Shown here: piece by piece, positions 4,698 to 60,532 of the stretch | Position numbering within the stretch: position 1 is the first letter of the stretch | Layout of the letters: every line of letters starts with the position of its first letter | From: a virus | Taxonomy: Duplodnaviria; Heunggongvirae; Uroviricota; Caudoviricetes | Length of the DNA: 64,000 bases | Reading direction: 5' to 3' (one strand) | Virus record (IMG/VR): IMGVR_UViG_2579778660_000001 | Translations under genes and position numbers: made by a program | Notes under the pieces: model-generated | What the model saw: the letters and a program-made list of their open reading frames with translations, nothing else | Told to the model about the DNA's origin: nothing | The model's database searches: none

Positions 4698-6615
4698 CAA
4701 TCCTTTACGAATTAATATTCAGTCTACTTTTGCTGATACGATCCCCGGCTATATGCCAGGTCGCTGGTCTTCAGAAGAATTAAGCGAAGATGACCTGATT
4801 TTTGAGGCGGCGACCTTAGAAGATATTGAGCTTGCCTATATGGGCAATGAAATTCTGGTTGTGTCTGACGAAGCTATGTTTGAGTCCATAACTACAACCA
4901 GAATTCGGTTAGCTCAAACAATGCGAGCTTTCGTCCGTGCGCTGAATCGTGGCCTGAATGGTACGAATATTATGGCAGGGACTGATGAAGCCGGGACCGA
5001 TGAAAATGGACGTAATTGTATTGGTGGTGCGATTATCGGTCGTGTACGTCGGGTAGCTAATATCCCTGTTTTGACCGCGCAGATACCGCTTACTGACGGG
5101 CAGAGTACAAGCATAATTTTCCACTCTCCAACAGCTGACGGGGCAAAAATAAAGAGTAACGACGAGCTTGTTGCATTTCAGTTTTTACTTAATAAGCGTA
5201 ACGTAACTCACGTTGTCGCCCCGATTGGCGGGAGAGATGTTTCTTTAAGCCAGGTATGCCAGGCGCTATCTAATTTGATTGAGCGTAACAGCGAAAAATT
5301 TAAGAAAGCAAAAGAGCGCCAGGACAAAATGAAGGCAGATATTGAGAGTTATCTCAATGAAGCAGATAAACTGGCAGAAGAACGGTCAATAACAATTGAT
5401 CAGGTGGACGTTGCGCAACGTGGGCTGACTGAAAAGCGTGCTGCTCTTACGGAGATGCAAAAAAAACTTGATGCCCAGAAAGCCATCAACGAGGAATTAC
5501 AAGAAAAACGCGATAAATTGTTGTCTGCTAAAGGTGAAAAAACGAAGGAGCGAGCGTTTAGTGACCAGCTGCGACATGTAAAACATAATCTTGCCATTGA
5601 CGGAAAAACAGTGCTGGATAATGGCGCTGAAGTTAATTATGTCACGTCCGGCAGTGACAATTTCGTTACGATAGTAGCACCTGAAGGTAAATTCAGTATT
5701 GATGCCAGTGCTGTCAAAGGAGGCAGTTTGGCAGATGCTGCAACCAAATTACTTAAAGCCTACCGAGAGCATAACGCAGATAAATATAAAGTTGATGTGT
5801 TACCAGGCCAGCAGGAAGACTCCGAACCACCACAGACAGCCCCCGAGACGAACCCAGTATCACAACCAGAGAGCCAAGATGTAGGTAAATACCACTATGC
5901 ACTTCAATCTCGCCCGGCTGGTGTTGGTGCTGTGCCGGATGGGAATAAAGCCGTGCTTGATCGTCCTGACCAGGCTGATCAGTATTACGGATATGCTCGT
6001 CACGGTATCATTACGTATGACCGTAAACTGACAGATGAAGAAGTCAGCCAGTACGAGTTGCTCTATCTTCCTGATGAAGATGAGCTGAAAGATTTTGCAG
6101 GCCAATTGGTTGTGTCCAGCATGTCTAAACATATTGATGGCTATGTGGACCTGTTTGGCAGTGACCTGAAAACATTCAAGGCGCAAGTGAAAATTCTTTT
6201 CCGCAAAGCGTTTCCAAACGTGGCGTATCCACTTGGTGATGGGGAGAACCTTTTCATTATGGACGTGTATAACGCCCTTCAAAATTATTCAAGCGAAGTA
6301 AAAACAGAGCATGTGGTTGAGCCAGAATCACAACCACAACCAGCACCAGAACAGGAGCCGGAGCCAGAAGAAGCGGGTGAATCAGCAAGTGAAGCTGATC
6401 AGGAGGCAGATAAAGCGCTGGAGTACCTGAAATCCGTGCCGGAGCAGTTTACATCCCGCGATCTGACGGTCATCAGTACTGAACTTGATCATGTACAGGA
6501 AGCAGCAAATGCTCTAATCAGTGCAGGTCGATACGACGAGAACGAAGCCACTGTGGGTGCAGCAGTTGACTACCTGATCAACATTCTGGCTGAAATTCAG
6601 CAGGGAGGTGCTTAA
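4690..6615 (+). CDS. DarA-like internal head protein (defence against restriction), 641 aa
   Basis: GGAGGA RBS with ATG at 4690 overlapping the upstream stop; size close to P1 DarA; coiled-coil and Pro/Glu-rich acidic linker; operon context with a DarB-like gene elsewhere in the window. Confidence 0.45.
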   Translation: MINNPLRINIQSTFADTIPGYMPGRWSSEELSEDDLIFEAATLEDIELAYMGNEILVVSDEAMFESITTTRIRLAQTMRAFVRALNRGLNGTNIMAGTDEAGTDENGRNCIGGAIIGRVRRVANIPVLTAQIPLTDGQSTSIIFHSPTADGAKIKSNDELVAFQFLLNKRNVTHVVAPIGGRDVSLSQVCQALSNLIERNSEKFKKAKERQDKMKADIESYLNEADKLAEERSITIDQVDVAQRGLTEKRAALTEMQKKLDAQKAINEELQEKRDKLLSAKGEKTKERAFSDQLRHVKHNLAIDGKTVLDNGAEVNYVTSGSDNFVTIVAPEGKFSIDASAVKGGSLADAATKLLKAYREHNADKYKVDVLPGQQEDSEPPQTAPETNPVSQPESQDVGKYHYALQSRPAGVGAVPDGNKAVLDRPDQADQYYGYARHGIITYDRKLTDEEVSQYELLYLPDEDELKDFAGQLVVSSMSKHIDGYVDLFGSDLKTFKAQVKILFRKAFPNVAYPLGDGENLFIMDVYNALQNYSSEVKTEHVVEPESQPQPAPEQEPEPEEAGESASEADQEADKALEYLKSVPEQFTSRDLTVISTELDHVQEAANALISAGRYDENEATVGAAVDYLINILAEIQQGGA

Positions 6616-54561: not shown

Positions 54562-54891
54562 ATGGGCTATAGCAGACTCGACGATAGGTACATTGAAGAC
54601 GATATTTTTCGTGCGCTGTTTCACCAGGAAATGATTAAGCGGGTATCGGAGTATCACTCTGATAATTTCCAGTACACGATAAAGATTGATGAAGTATATC
54701 GTTCAGACCTTGCAGCCTACAGGGCGTATGGCAATGCAGATTTGCGCTGGGTATTCCGGGTGCTGGTGGGCCATGAGTCAGAAATGGAAGAAATGCCCGC
54801 CGGGACCACGTTAACTCTTCCTGATGTGGCATGGCTGAGGAACAAGATCCGTGATTACGCGAGCGCGGAACCGGAGATAGAAAATGCCTGA
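54562..54891 (+). CDS. hypothetical protein, 109 aa
   Basis: Overlaps the downstream start (ATGCCTGA). Confidence 0.45.
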   Translation: MGYSRLDDRYIEDDIFRALFHQEMIKRVSEYHSDNFQYTIKIDEVYRSDLAAYRAYGNADLRWVFRVLVGHESEMEEMPAGTTLTLPDVAWLRNKIRDYASAEPEIENA

Positions 54892-56077
54892 TTTCCTGAA
54901 AAAACAGGACGGGCGCTATATCACTGACGGCCTGTCCTCTAAGGACTTCACGCGTTTATTCGAGATTATCAGGAAAGAACAAACCCGTAAGCGCCGACAA
55001 GCTCACCGGACGCTGACGCCAGGTAGACTGAGGAACAAATCCGCCGAAGATATTCTCAAGTTAGGGAAGAAAAAAGGCGGCACGTTCTTCACGCGAGACG
55101 ACCTGAAAGGTTTCGAAAAGCTACGGAGTAAAACGCGCGAAAAATATGACAGCAAGACGGCTGGCATCACATACGCCCAGCTGGTGGCATCCAGCCAGGC
55201 AATCGATATTAAGCGTGCAAATAACGCCGTGGATGACGGATCTGGTATCAAAAGAGCTACCCCCGTATCTCTTCGCCACAATGTGATTAATATCCGCGTA
55301 GAAGCATCGGATATATCCGTCCACCAGCACCATATCGTCCGGATACGCTTTGAAGAATGGGATCAGATGGTTGATGACATCGCAGAAGACGATAAATCAG
55401 CTCTCAAAATCACTAAATCACTGTGCGCCGGGCGAGTGTCTTTCGATTGTGACTGTGGTCGTCATCAATACTGGTATCGTTACATCGCCACTGCGGGTAA
55501 CTTTGCCCTGGCACCGCCAAAAGAATACGCCTATCCAAAAGTTCGCAACCCGAACCTGCAAGGCGTCGCCTGTAAACACGTGATCCACTCAATGACGCGG
55601 TTACAGTCCGCCAGTTGGCAAATGAGTATTGCTCGTGCGCTACAAAAGGCTGCAACGCAAATTGCATTTGGTGACGATCGCCGCCGTACAACCAAACACT
55701 TCTCAAAAGAAGACGAGAAGGAGTTTAATCGCAATCGTAGCAGTAAAACGAACGTTGAAGCCGCCAAACGCGAATGGAGACTCTATCAGAAGCGCCAGGC
55801 AGCTTTAAGTTCAAAACTGGCAAAGGACAACGGCAAGATCGACAAGCTACGTGACCAATTGACCAGGGCCAGAAAGTTGTCAGACGCACAGAAAAAACGG
55901 GCGGCTGCAAAAGAAGCGGCCTTGCAACGAGAGAAGCAGAAAAACAAGGAGCTTCAGCAACGCCTTGCCGATCAGTTCGCACTGAAGAAGCAGGCGTTCA
56001 TTGATGCGCTTGTCATGGCAGGAACGTCACCTGAGCAAGCTGAAAAAATGTTTATAGAGTACGTGAAAAAAGCATAA
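54884..56077 (+). CDS. SWIM-type zinc-finger protein with basic coiled-coil C-terminus, 397 aa
   Basis: CDCGRHQYWYRY...ACKHV matches the SWIM CxC-x(n)-CxH pattern. Confidence 0.45.
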   Translation: MPDFLKKQDGRYITDGLSSKDFTRLFEIIRKEQTRKRRQAHRTLTPGRLRNKSAEDILKLGKKKGGTFFTRDDLKGFEKLRSKTREKYDSKTAGITYAQLVASSQAIDIKRANNAVDDGSGIKRATPVSLRHNVINIRVEASDISVHQHHIVRIRFEEWDQMVDDIAEDDKSALKITKSLCAGRVSFDCDCGRHQYWYRYIATAGNFALAPPKEYAYPKVRNPNLQGVACKHVIHSMTRLQSASWQMSIARALQKAATQIAFGDDRRRTTKHFSKEDEKEFNRNRSSKTNVEAAKREWRLYQKRQAALSSKLAKDNGKIDKLRDQLTRARKLSDAQKKRAAAKEAALQREKQKNKELQQRLADQFALKKQAFIDALVMAGTSPEQAEKMFIEYVKKA

Positions 56078-56110
56078 ACCACACATAGCCTAGTAGTTTA
56101 TGCTGGGCTT

Positions 56111-56839
56111 TCATTTTTTTGAAAGATCAATTCCAGTATTATCAAATAAACTGGAAATATCAGACACCAATTTATTAAAATGCTTGTCATCATTATAGAA
56201 TGATGTGCTTTTTATAGCGACTATAAAATCACATAAATCTTGCGGAGATTCAATGCTAACACCCTTATTTTTATATAGTTCAATAATACTGCCAACATCA
56301 GTATGCAATAGTTTTATCGCACCACAAATTTCTCGCTGTTTCGTAGCTAGGTCATTAAGTTTATTTTCATTTTCATCTAATATTTGTTTTGAATATTTAG
56401 CGTCATTGGTTGCTTGATTTAACTTTGTTTTCTTTCTTTGCAATTCTATTCTTTTATCATAATCAGCAACTTCATCTAAATATCTTATTTCAGTGTATAA
56501 TTTACTTGTTAGCTTAGATATCGTCAGTGTGAGAATAGGAGCTAATACAGATGCAAATACTCCATAAATAAATGGGATTACAACGTGACAAACCCACGGG
56601 GGTACAATCCAATTATCAAAGAACGGTACATTACCACCAACAAAAACAATAGATAATGTATATAGGATGTCGTCCTTTGACTTTAATATAATTAAAATAT
56701 CCTTCCAGTTAAGGATTAGAAAAGAAATGACAACATATGCAAAAACCTTGTTAAATATTTTATCTTTTATTATTTCAGAAAATGATTTTAGTTCTGTTTC
56801 ATTTATAGACGGATTATCTTTAACTTTTTCTGACATCAT
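56111..56839 (-). CDS. AT-rich membrane protein, candidate abortive-infection / defence effector, 242 aa
   Basis: AGGA RBS; 3-4 predicted transmembrane helices then a coiled-coil cytoplasmic domain; the gene is markedly AT-rich compared with its flanks. Confidence 0.5.
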   Translation of the reverse strand: MMSEKVKDNPSINETELKSFSEIIKDKIFNKVFAYVVISFLILNWKDILIILKSKDDILYTLSIVFVGGNVPFFDNWIVPPWVCHVVIPFIYGVFASVLAPILTLTISKLTSKLYTEIRYLDEVADYDKRIELQRKKTKLNQATNDAKYSKQILDENENKLNDLATKQREICGAIKLLHTDVGSIIELYKNKGVSIESPQDLCDFIVAIKSTSFYNDDKHFNKLVSDISSLFDNTGIDLSKK

Positions 56840-56860
56840 AGCTTATCCTGATTACTTTTA

Positions 56861-57061
56861 TTATGGATAGTTAAAAGATTCAACAGGTGATGGTGGCTGA
56901 ATTGGGTAATGTTTCTTCTCGTACTCCTCAATGAGAAGACTCATAACCTCAAAGAAATCACCTTCCGGAGTATTCATTTCCGGTTCGTTATCGAACATCG
57001 GTTCGACCGCACGCAGTGCGGCCTCATAATCTTGTTCTGTACGGATAGGTTTAATGTTCAT
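56861..57061 (-). CDS. small protein resembling the N-terminal domain of long HigA-type antitoxins, 66 aa
   Basis: Pattern I.TEQDYEAAL..VE...D.EP.....GD.FEVMSLLIEEYE, as in the E. coli YgjM/HigA N-domain (recalled); no clear RBS. Confidence 0.3.
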   Translation of the reverse strand: MNIKPIRTEQDYEAALRAVEPMFDNEPEMNTPEGDFFEVMSLLIEEYEKKHYPIQPPSPVESFNYP

Positions 57062-57074
57062 TAATTACAAAGGA

Positions 57075-57100
57075 AAGCCCACTTGCTAAGTGGGCTTTTT
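57075..57100. terminator. bidirectional terminator hairpin (agcccact-tgcta-agtgggct)
   Basis: 8-bp stem flanked by an A run and a T run. Confidence 0.6.
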
Positions 57101-57117
57101 GTATGTGTTTTACTATA

Positions 57118-57456
57118 TCAGGCTGCTTTTTTATTCATGTTCCGCTGAGAAATAAATTTTTCAGCAGTATTGATACGACTTAACTCTTCCTGAACGCGCA
57201 TATCATTTTCGACTTCCCACAGATCTACTGCGGTCTGAAGATTAATCCAAAAATCTACAGAAGTATCGAATGCTTTTGCCAGGCGATATGCCATATCCAT
57301 CGTTAGCTTACGATTATTATTAACAAGAGCACTTACGGTGTTACGATGAACATGAAGTATTTCTGCTAACTCGTTGATCTTCAGCTCTAACGGCTCCAGG
57401 TATTCGTACAGCAGGATATCACCTACGGTCGTCGGTTTTCTGGTTGCCTGTTTCAT
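57118..57456 (-). CDS. higA: HigA-family antitoxin (XRE helix-turn-helix), 112 aa
   Basis: GDILLYEYLEPLELKINELAEILHVHRNTVSALVNNNRKLTMDMAYRLAKAF...FWINLQ is the canonical HigA HTH pattern. Confidence 0.8.
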   Translation of the reverse strand: MKQATRKPTTVGDILLYEYLEPLELKINELAEILHVHRNTVSALVNNNRKLTMDMAYRLAKAFDTSVDFWINLQTAVDLWEVENDMRVQEELSRINTAEKFISQRNMNKKAA

Positions 57457-57527
57457 TTTTTTGCCCTTACTAGCGTGCGTATTAAGTGGACTCTGGTCAG
57501 AACCCGGTCCGTAACCGGGTATCTGTT

Positions 57528-57830
57528 TTAGTATTTGTGAGGGTCGAGATACAAGTCCTCGGCCTTTCCGTTAACCCACTTAAAAATTAACCTATATTGC
57601 TTATTCACCCTTACTGATGAATAGCCATTTAGCTTCCCTGACAGTTCCTCATACCGATTACCTGGTGGTGATCTTAAATCCTTACAGGTAGTTGCGGCAT
57701 TGATAATGTCCAACTTCCGTGACAATGTCATATGAATATCAGGAGGTATCTTTCTATGTGGTGTTGAAAATTCAAAAAAATCATCAAGCCACGCATCCCT
57801 GAAATCCTTTATGTTAATTTTTTTGGTCAT
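57528..57830 (-). CDS. higB: HigB-family toxin (RelE/ParE-fold mRNA interferase), 100 aa
   Basis: C-terminal YRLIFKWVNGKAEDLYLDPHKY killer-protein motif; toxin-first hig gene order. Confidence 0.75.
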   Translation of the reverse strand: MTKKINIKDFRDAWLDDFFEFSTPHRKIPPDIHMTLSRKLDIINAATTCKDLRSPPGNRYEELSGKLNGYSSVRVNKQYRLIFKWVNGKAEDLYLDPHKY

Positions 57831-57980
57831 TAGTCATTTGATCCTCCGTGATGATTACCGAATGCCATAACTATAGCGCACCGTTGCACTGTGCGCAAGT
57901 GCATTTTATGAATTCCCCCTCCTTCATCCAAAATCACAATCTCCCGAAAATCTTCCTTTCGATACCTGACAGATCGACCT

Positions 57981-58784
57981 TTGAGGATGCTTATGGGCCG
58001 TTTTGACGAATGGTTTGCTGACGATGCAAACCTGGCAAGTAAGGAGTCAGAACATGACAGCACGCAGAGAGAAACGCCAGCGCCGATTGAAGCGAATGCA
58101 GGAGGCGCGCCGGAACATGGCAATACCGGTTCGGATTCATTCAGCATTCTGGAAGAGCAACCCGCCGCCAAAGCTGATAGCCATGATAATTTTGCTGATA
58201 GCAACGGTGGCCTTACTCCGGATGCTGGCGAATCAGATATAGCCATACTTCCACCTTCCCTGGCTGGCAGAGAACCAACTCCACAGCTAAAAGCACGCTA
58301 TAACGGGCATAAAGCCTTTAACGACCAAATCCGCGCAGACTGGATGCTGATTATTGAATCCAGCCCAGACGCGTTTCAGGCTCTCTTATATCGACCAGAT
58401 GTTGGCACATATGGGGTAGTCAGCGACGAAACAGGAGAAGAGTCATTCACTGAACTGGATAACAACCAACGCGAACTGACTTACCAGGAACCTGAAATCG
58501 TTTATGTGCTGGATAACCCTGACGGACGTGACTCTTTCCATGCGATTGACGCAGACGGTGAGCAGGATGGCTTAACCGATGATGTTCTGATTCTGCGTAT
58601 TGCAGCAAATAACGTCCCCGTCGGCTCAATTCTTGAATGGAATGAAGAGATGGTAAACGGCGTAGCCCGCCGCTGGTGGTACGTGCACCGTATTTTTAGC
58701 TACGGCACACAGCATGTTGGTTCGCTTTACTACTGCATACCTGCCAGGAATTTTGATACGACTCAAAACGGAGTGATCGAATGA
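57981..58784 (+). CDS. hypothetical acidic structural protein, 267 aa
   Basis: First gene of a four-gene operon that ends with a baseplate-spike-like protein. Confidence 0.45.
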   Translation: MRMLMGRFDEWFADDANLASKESEHDSTQRETPAPIEANAGGAPEHGNTGSDSFSILEEQPAAKADSHDNFADSNGGLTPDAGESDIAILPPSLAGREPTPQLKARYNGHKAFNDQIRADWMLIIESSPDAFQALLYRPDVGTYGVVSDETGEESFTELDNNQRELTYQEPEIVYVLDNPDGRDSFHAIDADGEQDGLTDDVLILRIAANNVPVGSILEWNEEMVNGVARRWWYVHRIFSYGTQHVGSLYYCIPARNFDTTQNGVIE

Positions 58785-59548
58785 CTTCAAATAAAACCCT
58801 CCTGGCGCGAACAGGTGAATGGCAAACCTCACGCACAGGAAAATTCCAGACCACGGGCTTTGAAAACGTGGATAACGCGTTTGCGACGCTAATCAGCAAC
58901 ATTTTTTCTGATATCTTACTGGTGGCCCCCGCGCCGGAAGAAAAACGCTTTGCGTCATTCCTGAATCGTCCACCAGCAGAGCGTGTCTATGTGGCCCGTT
59001 TCGACAATGCGATCGAGTTTCTTAAAGCAGTTCGTCGCGCAAATGCCGGGCAAGGGAGAAAACCTGAAAACCAGAACATTAACCGGGATGCTCTCCCCCT
59101 GGTCAATATCTCACGCACTATGGATATCAATTATATCAACGATGATCAGCAGATTGACCGCAAAAAAGTAGCCAGTTTTTGCGAACCAGATACCGGAATG
59201 CCTTTAGCAGAACTGGAATACACCCAGGCCATTCTGACGTATGACGTTACGTTAATGGCAACTGATAAAGCGACCATGAGTCTGATGTGTAATTCGCTGG
59301 GCGCACGGCTTCGCCTGATGACAGGTACACAATTTGAAGCAACCACTCACCTTGTTCGTGTCCCGGTCCCGCTGATTTGCTCGATACAGGATGCCAAAGA
59401 AGTCGGCTTTACGGATGTTTCAGCACCAATTGGAGAAGAGCGTATTTATGCCACACAAGCGCCGATAAGTGTGATTGCAGACGTGATCACAGCATGGGAG
59501 TTGGACGCAAAACGTATTATTACCGAAACCTCGATATCTATGGGGTGA
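58781..59548 (+). CDS. putative baseplate/tail component, 255 aa
   Basis: ATGA overlap; operon context. Confidence 0.4.
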   Translation: MTSNKTLLARTGEWQTSRTGKFQTTGFENVDNAFATLISNIFSDILLVAPAPEEKRFASFLNRPPAERVYVARFDNAIEFLKAVRRANAGQGRKPENQNINRDALPLVNISRTMDINYINDDQQIDRKKVASFCEPDTGMPLAELEYTQAILTYDVTLMATDKATMSLMCNSLGARLRLMTGTQFEATTHLVRVPVPLICSIQDAKEVGFTDVSAPIGEERIYATQAPISVIADVITAWELDAKRIITETSISMG

Positions 59549-59551
59549 TAA

Positions 59552-60532
59552 GTGGCCCAGGAGTTACAACAATATTTTCTACAGTCAGTGCTCATTAACG
59601 ATAACAAAGTGCCACGAGACTGGATTTTTACCGCAGTATATGTAGAAAAAACCAGCCTCAAAGCCCCTTTGCTAAAACTGGAAATTCATGACGCTACCGG
59701 CACCGTAATTGATGACTGGAAAGCCAAATACGGTGCATCGCTGGTGGCTGAAATGGGCGATCCAAACGGTAATGCAGGCACTTTTAAAACAGATTTCTTT
59801 GTTACGTCTGCAATGCTGGCTGGTGATGTTGTTACCGTTATTGCTGTCAGTGAAGACGTGCGCAGGTTTAAGATCCCCTCCCCGCGCACAAATTTACATA
59901 CCAACAAAACACCAGACGCTATATTCAAGGCATATTCCGGCAAACTTAAAATTACCAGCAGCGTGCTAAAACGCGCAGTTACATATCATCTGAATGCTGG
60001 TGACAAACCGTCAAAAATGCTTTCGGAGATAGCGCGAGACAAAGGTGCATTGTGTTGGGTATGTCGGGGGGAATTTAACTTTTACACCCTGGCTGATCTG
60101 ATGAAGCAAACGCCATCATTTACCTACGAGGGGAATAACCCTAAAGCAGAATACACTTTGTCCAAAATGCGCCTACTCCAACAGGAACATGCGACAACAG
60201 CAAAGAATCAATATCGTTTTGTTGGGTATTCCATGACCGATGGCTACGTCGAATATGGCGATAGCTCACTCCCAGTGCGTTATATATCCGACTCTGATAT
60301 GGAAACTCTTCGCAATATGCAGCTGTCTCTCGTCCCCAAAATGGATATAGAAGTCGCAGGCAATCCTGATATAAAACCGGGGATGGTAATAGAGATTATC
60401 GTATACCGCTATGACCAGGAAAACCGCATTGATGAATCAATGCCCCGTAAGCTGATAGTAAAAAATGTTGCGCACTTTGAGGACCGCGTAGGCTACACAA
60501 CACGAATGATATTGGGAGTGCCTAACAAATGA
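59552..60532 (+). CDS. putative baseplate/tail component, 326 aa
   Basis: Operon context. Confidence 0.4.
   Translation: MAQELQQYFLQSVLINDNKVPRDWIFTAVYVEKTSLKAPLLKLEIHDATGTVIDDWKAKYGASLVAEMGDPNGNAGTFKTDFFVTSAMLAGDVVTVIAVSEDVRRFKIPSPRTNLHTNKTPDAIFKAYSGKLKITSSVLKRAVTYHLNAGDKPSKMLSEIARDKGALCWVCRGEFNFYTLADLMKQTPSFTYEGNNPKAEYTLSKMRLLQQEHATTAKNQYRFVGYSMTDGYVEYGDSSLPVRYISDSDMETLRNMQLSLVPKMDIEVAGNPDIKPGMVIEIIVYRYDQENRIDESMPRKLIVKNVAHFEDRVGYTTRMILGVPNK

Follow-up and report, generated by a model that had tools for sequence, protein, structure and literature searches.

An uncharacterised family of prophage accessory membrane proteins, hypervariable at one locus of near-clonal D6-like phage-plasmids

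What does a small, AT-rich gene for a membrane protein do on the antisense strand within the tail gene cluster of a phage-plasmid? The question is raised by an open reading frame (ORF) of 242 amino acids (aa) at positions 56111–56839 (minus strand) of the 64,000-nucleotide stretch analysed in this study (IMG/VR virus record IMGVR_UViG_2579778660_000001, hereafter the window), which sequence comparison identified as a D6-like (P1-family) Escherichia coli phage-plasmid. A sequence-only reading had taken this gene, together with the higB-higA toxin-antitoxin (TA) pair upstream of it, as a candidate abortive-infection or exclusion module. Our computational analysis concluded that the gene belongs to an uncharacterised family and encodes an accessory membrane protein of prophages that is hypervariable in a clonal backbone. 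Tentatively, the gene is best explained as an autonomous "moron", an accessory gene that temperate phages and phage-plasmids of Enterobacterales carry and whose inner-membrane protein would act in conflict among phages and mobile elements, by superinfection exclusion or abortive infection, a role suggested by its context.

The 242-aa gene lies between two blocks of plus-strand homologues of P1 tail and baseplate genes; the left block corresponds to genes 26-25 and the right block to 7-24-6-5. In P1 itself, genes 25 and 7 abut with a gap of 3 nucleotides (nt) and nothing in between, and therefore the four minus-strand genes of the window represent an antisense accessory insert that splits the late operon. 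The 242-aa gene, antisense to this operon, is convergent with the gene 25 homologue on the left flank (54884–56077, plus strand; annotated in D6 and 56% identical to P1 gp25), and between the two convergent ends, downstream of the 242-aa gene, is a terminator-like hairpin at 56087–56109 with a 9-bp stem followed by TTCATTTTTT on the plus strand, which is conserved in D6. The homologue of tail gene 7 begins the right flank at 57981–58784 (plus strand; D6 annotation and P1 map). The guanine-plus-cytosine (GC) content of the gene, 0.288 (0.206 at third codon positions), is the lowest in the window, about 5 standard deviations under the mean (0.479, with a standard deviation of 0.035 over 729-bp windows). 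Its position between genes that are adjacent in P1 and this difference in composition are the marks of a moron insertion. The AT-rich gene beside TA genes that the sequence-only reading had described is thus real, and the "strong" ribosome-binding site also ascribed to it is present as AGGA, 6 nt before the ATG (the ORF starts ATG-ATG), adequate and not exceptional.

The element is widespread. Escherichia phage D6, a P1-family plasmid prophage, is 99.5% identical to the window over higBA, approximately 75 plasmids of E. coli, Salmonella and Shigella of about 90 kb match the region over its full length at 98–99.6% identity, and all of the matches to the region in 5,426 complete E. coli genomes (95/95) were on plasmids. 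The window allele (≥ 95% aa identity) was the commonest form: 71 plasmid records out of 156 had it, with E. coli, Salmonella and Shigella as hosts; the window-type allele was full length in all records among the matches listed. In two D6-like contigs of IMG/VR, the membrane gene was frameshifted or truncated (locus L019, 3889–4634, and locus L024, 6001–6402), which may be due to decay or to assembly error.

The family is rare. When 1.84 billion cluster representatives were searched exhaustively with HMMER, only 44 clusters matched at E ≤ 1e-3, and 19 at E ≤ 1e-10. All family members with a source name were annotated as "hypothetical protein" of Enterobacterales, and the genera named were Escherichia, Klebsiella, Citrobacter, Enterobacter, Pantoea, Rahnella, Kluyvera, Lelliottia and Pseudocitrobacter. 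A word-indexed protein search returned few relatives, profiles included, and a genome-contig scan returned one locus. A scan of IMG/VR identified 23 loci, all of them D6-like, in which the homologue always lay between the gene 25 and gene 7 homologues. Solo homologues were found in Rahnella and Klebsiella prophages of the P2-like type, antisense between the genes for gpS and gpV in the slot that the nonessential Orf30 has in P2. In lambdoid prophages, they are flanked by the lysis cassette and the HNH/terminase genes, and solo copies were also present in Enterobacter and Pantoea chromosomes and on one large plasmid. The gene occupies accessory slots of three unrelated types of temperate phage. 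P1 lacks it, as do some D6-like plasmids, one of which carries only an AlpA gene at the locus. The possibility that the homologues are conserved structural phage genes, which the sequence-only reading had itself raised, was not borne out, as they are accessory and of variable presence. At one solo site in a Pantoea sp. chromosome (L048, 7980–10322), the family member is located 1.3 kb from the gene for a 780-aa AAA_13/SMC_N-type ATPase; domains of this type are common in defence systems, and the site, near rpoD, is possibly a small island of defence genes.

Whatever the host or element, family members were richer in AT than their flanks (GC 0.28–0.44 compared with 0.45–0.57). Low GC content common to all alleles and distant homologues is a family trait and no sign of recent acquisition. 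The conclusion of recent acquisition that had been drawn from the composition of the gene was also contradicted by its occurrence at the same locus across the D6-like clade and by the number of plasmid records with the window allele. Two papers on phage-plasmids (PMC6799933; 10.1101/2025.09.12.675607) and a paper on P2/P4 hotspots (PMC13586616) make no mention of the 242-aa gene. In a DefenseFinder survey, a complete defence system was found in only one D6-like phage-plasmid (10.1101/2025.09.12.675607), which indicates that current tools do not recognise the 242-aa locus.

Comparison of the D6-like loci revealed deep polymorphism of the gene. The aa identity of the 242-aa protein to that of the window was 100, 96–97, 60, 46, 44, 42, 37 or 35%, while the products of the flanking genes were mostly 96–100% identical to those of the window (68–96% in the more divergent backbones of L020–L023 and L025). 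Among five close backbones, nucleotide identity in the flanks was 97–100%, and that of the gene was 58–68% between allele classes and 98% within the window type. An aa identity matrix, to which a metagenomic D6-like contig contributed an allele of 27% identity, ranged from 18 to 97% and resolved at least eight allele classes (18–60% identity between classes). Synonymous divergence (dS) between allele classes was 0.8–2.0 compared with 0.02–0.13 in the flanks, which indicates that old alleles were placed into a young backbone by recombination. The ratio of nonsynonymous to synonymous divergence (dN/dS) of the gene was 0.22–0.30 in nine pairwise comparisons (about 0.25), and that of the flanks was 0.0–0.2, a range that is unreliable where the counts are tiny. 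As judged from these comparisons, the alleles are old lineages recombined into a young, near-clonal backbone, and each is a functional gene under purifying selection; the possibility of a chance ORF was ruled out on the same grounds. The variation is unevenly distributed along the protein, with mean pairwise identities of 0.46–0.64 in the conserved residues 21–110 and 0.19–0.36 in the variable residues 120–242. In a second TA background (L023 compared with L028), the toxins were 100%, the antitoxins 98% and the membrane proteins 49% identical. Such recombining polymorphism is typical of genes in mobile-element conflict, such as those for exclusion, abortive infection and immunity specificities, and its depth in a near-clonal backbone strengthens the case for a role of this kind.

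The sequence-only reading had attributed several transmembrane (TM) helices and a coiled-coil cytoplasmic domain to the protein. Membrane spans are present, of which only two were clear by Kyte-Doolittle analysis (residues ~32–52 and 83–107), with one weaker, sub-threshold segment between them. AlphaFold2 with 25 homologues gave a model with a mean predicted local distance difference test (pLDDT) score of 78.9 (a model made with 3 sequences, pLDDT 49.6, was unusable), in which short helices at 13–28, 31–43, 45–53 and 58–65 are followed by a single uninterrupted helix over residues 81–191, with pLDDT above 90 at 110–170, and by two short C-terminal helices. The predicted protein thus has three parts: a conserved N-terminal membrane module that holds both hydrophobic helices (approximately residues 21–110), the long helix, which extends as far as residue 191, and a small helical region at the C-terminus. 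The family alignment of the module reads KDKLFNKvFaYxxxSFLxxNWqxILIxxKSKxDIxxTL ... LPxxxGxxASxxxPxxT, in which N44 and P89 are invariant across the family and S39, S54 and P101 are near-invariant; the remainder of the protein is helical and poorly conserved. A Lys/Arg-rich stretch after the second TM helix suggests that the C-terminal part is cytoplasmic. The modelled long helix, and a PDB profile search that returned coiled-coil look-alikes only, agree with a coiled coil, and the earlier description was overstated in giving as a fact a cytoplasmic location that is deduced from residue composition.

The 242-aa protein had no match in Pfam, NCBIfam or PADLOC (the latter searched at E ≤ 1). In PHROGs, it matched phrog_8191 at 3e-122 over positions 1–242 of 242, a family annotated as "unknown function". 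Foldseek returned 14 matches in the PDB, all non-significant (E 5–10). Tetrameric cation channels (KcsA, Kv2.1, Kv4.3, TRPV1 and THIK1) accounted for five of the 14, each matched in its pore domain, and these domains and the model share the layout of a TM helix, a short helix, a TM helix and a long C-terminal helix. This likeness to K+/TRP channel pores was not relied on, as the loop between the helices is unconserved and no selectivity-filter motif is present in the family.

If the gene is indeed a moron for exclusion or abortive infection, its two N-terminal hydrophobic helices would anchor the protein in the inner membrane with both ends in the cytoplasm, and the cytoplasmic helix of about 85 residues would drive oligomerisation. 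The fast-diverging coiled coil and the C-terminal part would decide which invader is recognised, and the conserved membrane module would execute the effect, which might be a block of genome entry or a perturbation of the membrane. The cargo role proposed by the sequence-only reading thus survives as the best reading, helped by the allelic polymorphism and held with somewhat less than even confidence; the adjacent HigBA insertion proved to be unrelated to it.

Several points weigh against this role. With dN/dS below 1, there is no direct sign of positive selection, and coiled coils diverge fast for structural reasons alone. The topology and the oligomeric state of the protein are predictions, and no convincing sigma-70 promoter was seen directly upstream of the gene in the window. 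Finally, accessory genes of phages may instead modify the envelope or raise the fitness of the host, among other functions.

The nearest functional analogues would be membrane accessory genes in tail clusters, of the HK97 gp15 type, and allelic entry-exclusion proteins. HK97 gp15, the subject of work by Cumby et al. in 2012, is reportedly a membrane protein encoded in the tail gene cluster that excludes superinfecting phages. By description, both genes are accessory, encode inner-membrane proteins, lie among the tail genes of temperate phages and are missing in close relatives; the 242-aa protein is much larger and differs in its cytoplasmic helix of about 85 residues and its deep allelic polymorphism. 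The entry-exclusion proteins of conjugative elements (TraS; Eex of SXT/R391) form allelic "exclusion groups". These, too, are similar by description, as small inner-membrane proteins with discrete alleles at a fixed locus, the variable part of which would set specificity, and they differ in that the element here is a phage-plasmid. Alignment of the 242-aa protein by hhalign to lambda SieB and RexB gave probabilities of 0.3% and 0.8%. SieB and RexB are prophage-encoded, expressed in lysogens and annotated for exclusion or abortive infection, the role proposed here, and their sequence similarity to the 242-aa protein is undetectable.

The position of family members antisense between gpS and gpV in the P2 Orf30 slot, and the swapping of cassettes in a conserved backbone, also resemble the P2/P4 hotspots, in which accessory defence genes swap rapidly in conserved backbones and most of the unannotated hotspot loci tested were protective (PMC13586616). 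Swapping in the hotspots is among unrelated systems, whereas in D6-like elements it is among divergent alleles of one family. There is also no homology to Orf30 (hhalign probability 0.7%), and the P4 systems that have been newly validated are all unlike the 242-aa protein (PMC13586616).

The remaining genes of the insert raise the question of whether the membrane gene is tied to TA pairs. The presence of higB, higA and a 66-aa ORF upstream of the membrane gene on the same strand, as stated in the sequence-only reading, was confirmed by the ORFs and by profile matches. HigB (57528–57830, minus strand; RelE-like; PF05015, 4.4e-35) is 100% identical to D6 orf70, and HigA (57118–57456, minus strand; TIGR02607, 7.9e-30; PF01381 (HTH_3), 8e-11) is 99% identical to D6 orf71. 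With a PF05015 toxin whose gene comes first and an antitoxin above the 47.7-bit cutoff of TIGR02607, the pair has the features that define the Rts1/Vibrio type, and is assigned on this basis to the type II TA systems of that type. The HigB/HigA pair of D6 has already been noted as an addiction module of that phage (PMC6799933). An inverted repeat with perfect arms at 57885–57903 (TGCACTGTGCGCAAGTGCA), located 55–73 nt upstream of higB and with a terminator-like score on the plus strand, is possibly a HigA operator.

The 66-aa ORF (56861–57061, minus strand), which had been read as a small gene in its own right, has a different origin from this pair. Its counterpart in D6 is orf72, of 119 aa, to residues 1–65 of which it is 90.8% identical; it keeps the N-terminal domain of orf72, and the helix-turn-helix (HTH) half and the downstream intergenic hairpin are gone in a deletion of approximately 200 bp. 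PGAP calls the ORF a pseudogene with a missing C-terminus. In PADLOC, it matched PD-Lambda-2_B over positions 1–65 of 402 (2.5e-16), and full-length orf72 matched positions 1–119 of the same profile (4e-43 to 6.9e-43). In addition, orf72 matched the solved structure of E. coli K-12 HigA (5IFG_B/5YCL_A, 8e-08). In five D6-like loci without the PF05015 higBA (L018, L020, L021, L024 and L025), a PF09907 HigB is encoded 4 nt upstream of orf72, and that of L018 matched PD-Lambda-2_A (2.6e-42) and E. coli HigB (5IFG_A, 3e-08). Intact pairs of a PF09907 HigB and an N-domain/HTH HigA were found in L018, L023, L028, L040 and L049. By Pfam scan and D6 alignment, the window has no PF09907 gene and no HigBA with the features of the E. 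coli K-12 type. These comparisons indicate that the 66-aa ORF is a relic of an E. coli K-12-type HigA, the cognate toxin of which is absent from the window, and that the intact HigBA of the window is of a different family, placed where related elements carry the PF09907 HigB. The complete higB-higA pair was thus mistaken for the functional partner of the membrane gene, as the partner in other elements is the E. coli K-12-type HigB/HigA.

The membrane gene is the third gene after the PF09907 HigB and the 119-aa HigA (orf72) in L018, and it is third after another PF09907 HigB with a 139-aa HigA in three settings: a divergent D6-like locus, a phage-plasmid of Enterobacter hormaechei, and IncFIB/HI1B plasmids of Klebsiella, where insertion sequence (IS) elements often cut the third gene. 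It also follows a ParE and HTH_3 pair. In a P1-like element of Pseudocitrobacter, at a different locus, it is third again, after a TA pair that is 54%/53% identical, and the membrane protein there is only 24% identical. The link of the membrane gene to a TA pair is therefore recurrent and not obligate. In the window, the gene is intact where its usual TA partner has decayed, and must work there without that pair. In L026 and L027 (6153–7513), the trio of HigB, HigA and membrane gene has moved onto large IncFIB/HI1B plasmids of Klebsiella, of the resistance/virulence type, and is flanked by IS5/IS66/IS903B; the membrane gene is truncated (137–187 aa) and HigBA is intact. Such partial matches were found in 54 Klebsiella plasmid records.

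These arrangements bear on the first of the rival explanations, a HigBA-linked system of three parts that would be analogous to PD-lambda-2 and have the 242-aa protein as its third component. In such a system, HigB/HigA would sense or regulate, the membrane protein would be the effector or an accessory, and the copy in the window would have decayed. The gene recurs directly downstream of pairs of a toxin and an N-domain/HTH antitoxin of several lineages, the L018 HigB and orf72 are homologous to PD-Lambda-2_A and to positions 1–119 of PD-Lambda-2_B, and PD-lambda-2 defence requires its third gene (Vassallo et al. 2022, PMC9519451). L018-type loci resemble that system in having three genes in a row, for a toxin, an HTH protein and a third component, with upstream genes homologous to A and to the HigA-like N-terminal 119 residues of B. 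They differ from it in that the B homologue has no peptidase and the third gene is unrelated to C, and the window lacks A and keeps only 66 aa of B. The window locus itself was rejected as a PD-lambda-2 system on all three components. The window HigB (PF05015) had no PADLOC match to component A, a homologue of which was seen only in related loci, L018 among them; no peptidase domain was found in the 66-aa ORF or in D6 orf72, measured against the 402-position profile of component B with its HTH and C-terminal peptidase; and the 242-aa protein had no PADLOC match to component C, which is related to a P4 antitoxin.

Further observations make a tripartite system unlikely in spite of its recurrence. 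TA proteins that are 98–100% identical stand beside membrane proteins that are 49% identical, which argues against specific co-adaptation of the proteins, and a hairpin or terminator lies between the antitoxin and the membrane gene in every trio. One D6-like plasmid carries the TA pair (HigB and orf72) without the membrane gene, and the gene stands solo in P2-like and lambdoid prophages and in chromosomes. In the window type, with neither the cognate toxin nor a full-length antitoxin, the membrane gene is nevertheless intact in 71 plasmids.

The hairpins at these loci were compared as well. Between the window TA pair and the relic ORF, where the sequence-only reading had placed a bidirectional terminator, a hairpin with a 13-bp stem is present at 57072–57100; it is identical in D6 and has a good T-run on the plus strand and a weaker one on the minus strand. 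In the other arrangements, a GC-rich hairpin, often with a T-run, is located between the antitoxin stop and the start of the membrane gene (L012–L020, ~5880–5950; L029, ~4890–4920; L028, ~4920–4960; L049, 5945–6000). In the window, the deletion that truncated orf72 took out this hairpin, and 21 nt are left between the relic ORF and the membrane gene.

A second rival explanation is that the 242-aa protein is a membrane protein of lysogenic conversion unrelated to defence, serving envelope or stress adaptation or fitness in the interaction with the host, and that its diversity results from relaxed constraint on the coiled coil together with recombination. The accessory position and AT-rich composition are those of many phage accessory genes of diverse function, no match to a defence family was found in PADLOC, and a dN/dS of about 0.25 would fit simple relaxed purifying selection. 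Saturated dS in a backbone that is 97–100% identical, however, needs repeated import or upkeep of old alleles, as is typical of conflict loci under frequency-dependent selection rather than of cargo akin to housekeeping genes, and the TA modules with which the gene is repeatedly co-located have homology to a defence system that has been validated. This explanation was therefore considered improbable.

It is very unlikely that the 242-aa protein is a membrane toxin checked by the adjacent HTH protein, with orf72 as antitoxin or repressor in a two-gene TA or abortive-infection pair. An HTH gene is immediately upstream in most D6-like loci, and small membrane proteins are common as toxins. The window type has lost the HTH half of orf72, and still the membrane gene is intact, under purifying selection and the commonest allele; moreover, orf72 is demonstrably the partner of the PF09907 HigB, and the gene stands solo in other prophages. 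A virion, tail-assembly or lysis function is scarcely credible and was rejected. The gene is embedded in the tail/baseplate cluster of D6-like and P2-like elements, and in lambdoid prophages it adjoins the lysis cassette; it runs, however, on the strand opposite to the late genes, is missing from P1 and some D6-like plasmids, and is hypervariable while its structural neighbours are near-identical.

The reading of the gene as an autonomous moron in mobile-element conflict is thus preferred over these alternatives. An extended version of it, which we regard as doubtful, is that the family represents an unrecognised anti-phage or exclusion system of temperate phages of Enterobacterales, consisting of a conserved two-helix membrane effector joined to a hypervariable cytoplasmic coiled-coil sensor, with alleles that would differ in target specificity and act as exclusion groups among D6-like elements. 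In its full form, the system would be coupled in transcription, by way of a terminator that leaks, to a HigB/HigA pair of the PD-lambda-2 type; this pair would regulate itself and, upon decay of the antitoxin during infection, boost the expression of the system.

Phage-plasmids of the D6-like and P1-like kinds occur commonly in E. coli, Salmonella and Shigella. As one gene of 0.7 kb, deeply polymorphic in a near-clonal element of about 90 kb and available in at least eight natural alleles, the membrane gene is a cheap and well-defined candidate for an exclusion or abortive-infection determinant. If it is active, its allele classes would supply a natural series of specificities, and its recurrent pairing with HigB/HigA of the PD-lambda-2 type would inform how TA modules and membrane effectors combine.

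Other observations concern the surroundings of the insert. The P1 late operon 26-25-7-24-6-5, compared over window positions 54562–60532, is a single operon that the antisense insert breaks. Genes 7-24-6-5 of D6-like elements must therefore depend on a new promoter in 57831–57980, or on read-through of approximately 1.9 kb of antisense genes and two hairpins. Rfam gave no match within 55500–58500. A 138-aa ORF at 57830–58246 (minus strand), rich in Ala and Ser, overlaps the 5' end of the gene 7 homologue and is probably spurious. In two loci (L013, 8427–8657, and L022, 9169–9381), an extra HigA-like ORF, 30% identical to the window HigA, is present between the homologues of gene 26 and mat, and marks a second accessory insertion point nearby.

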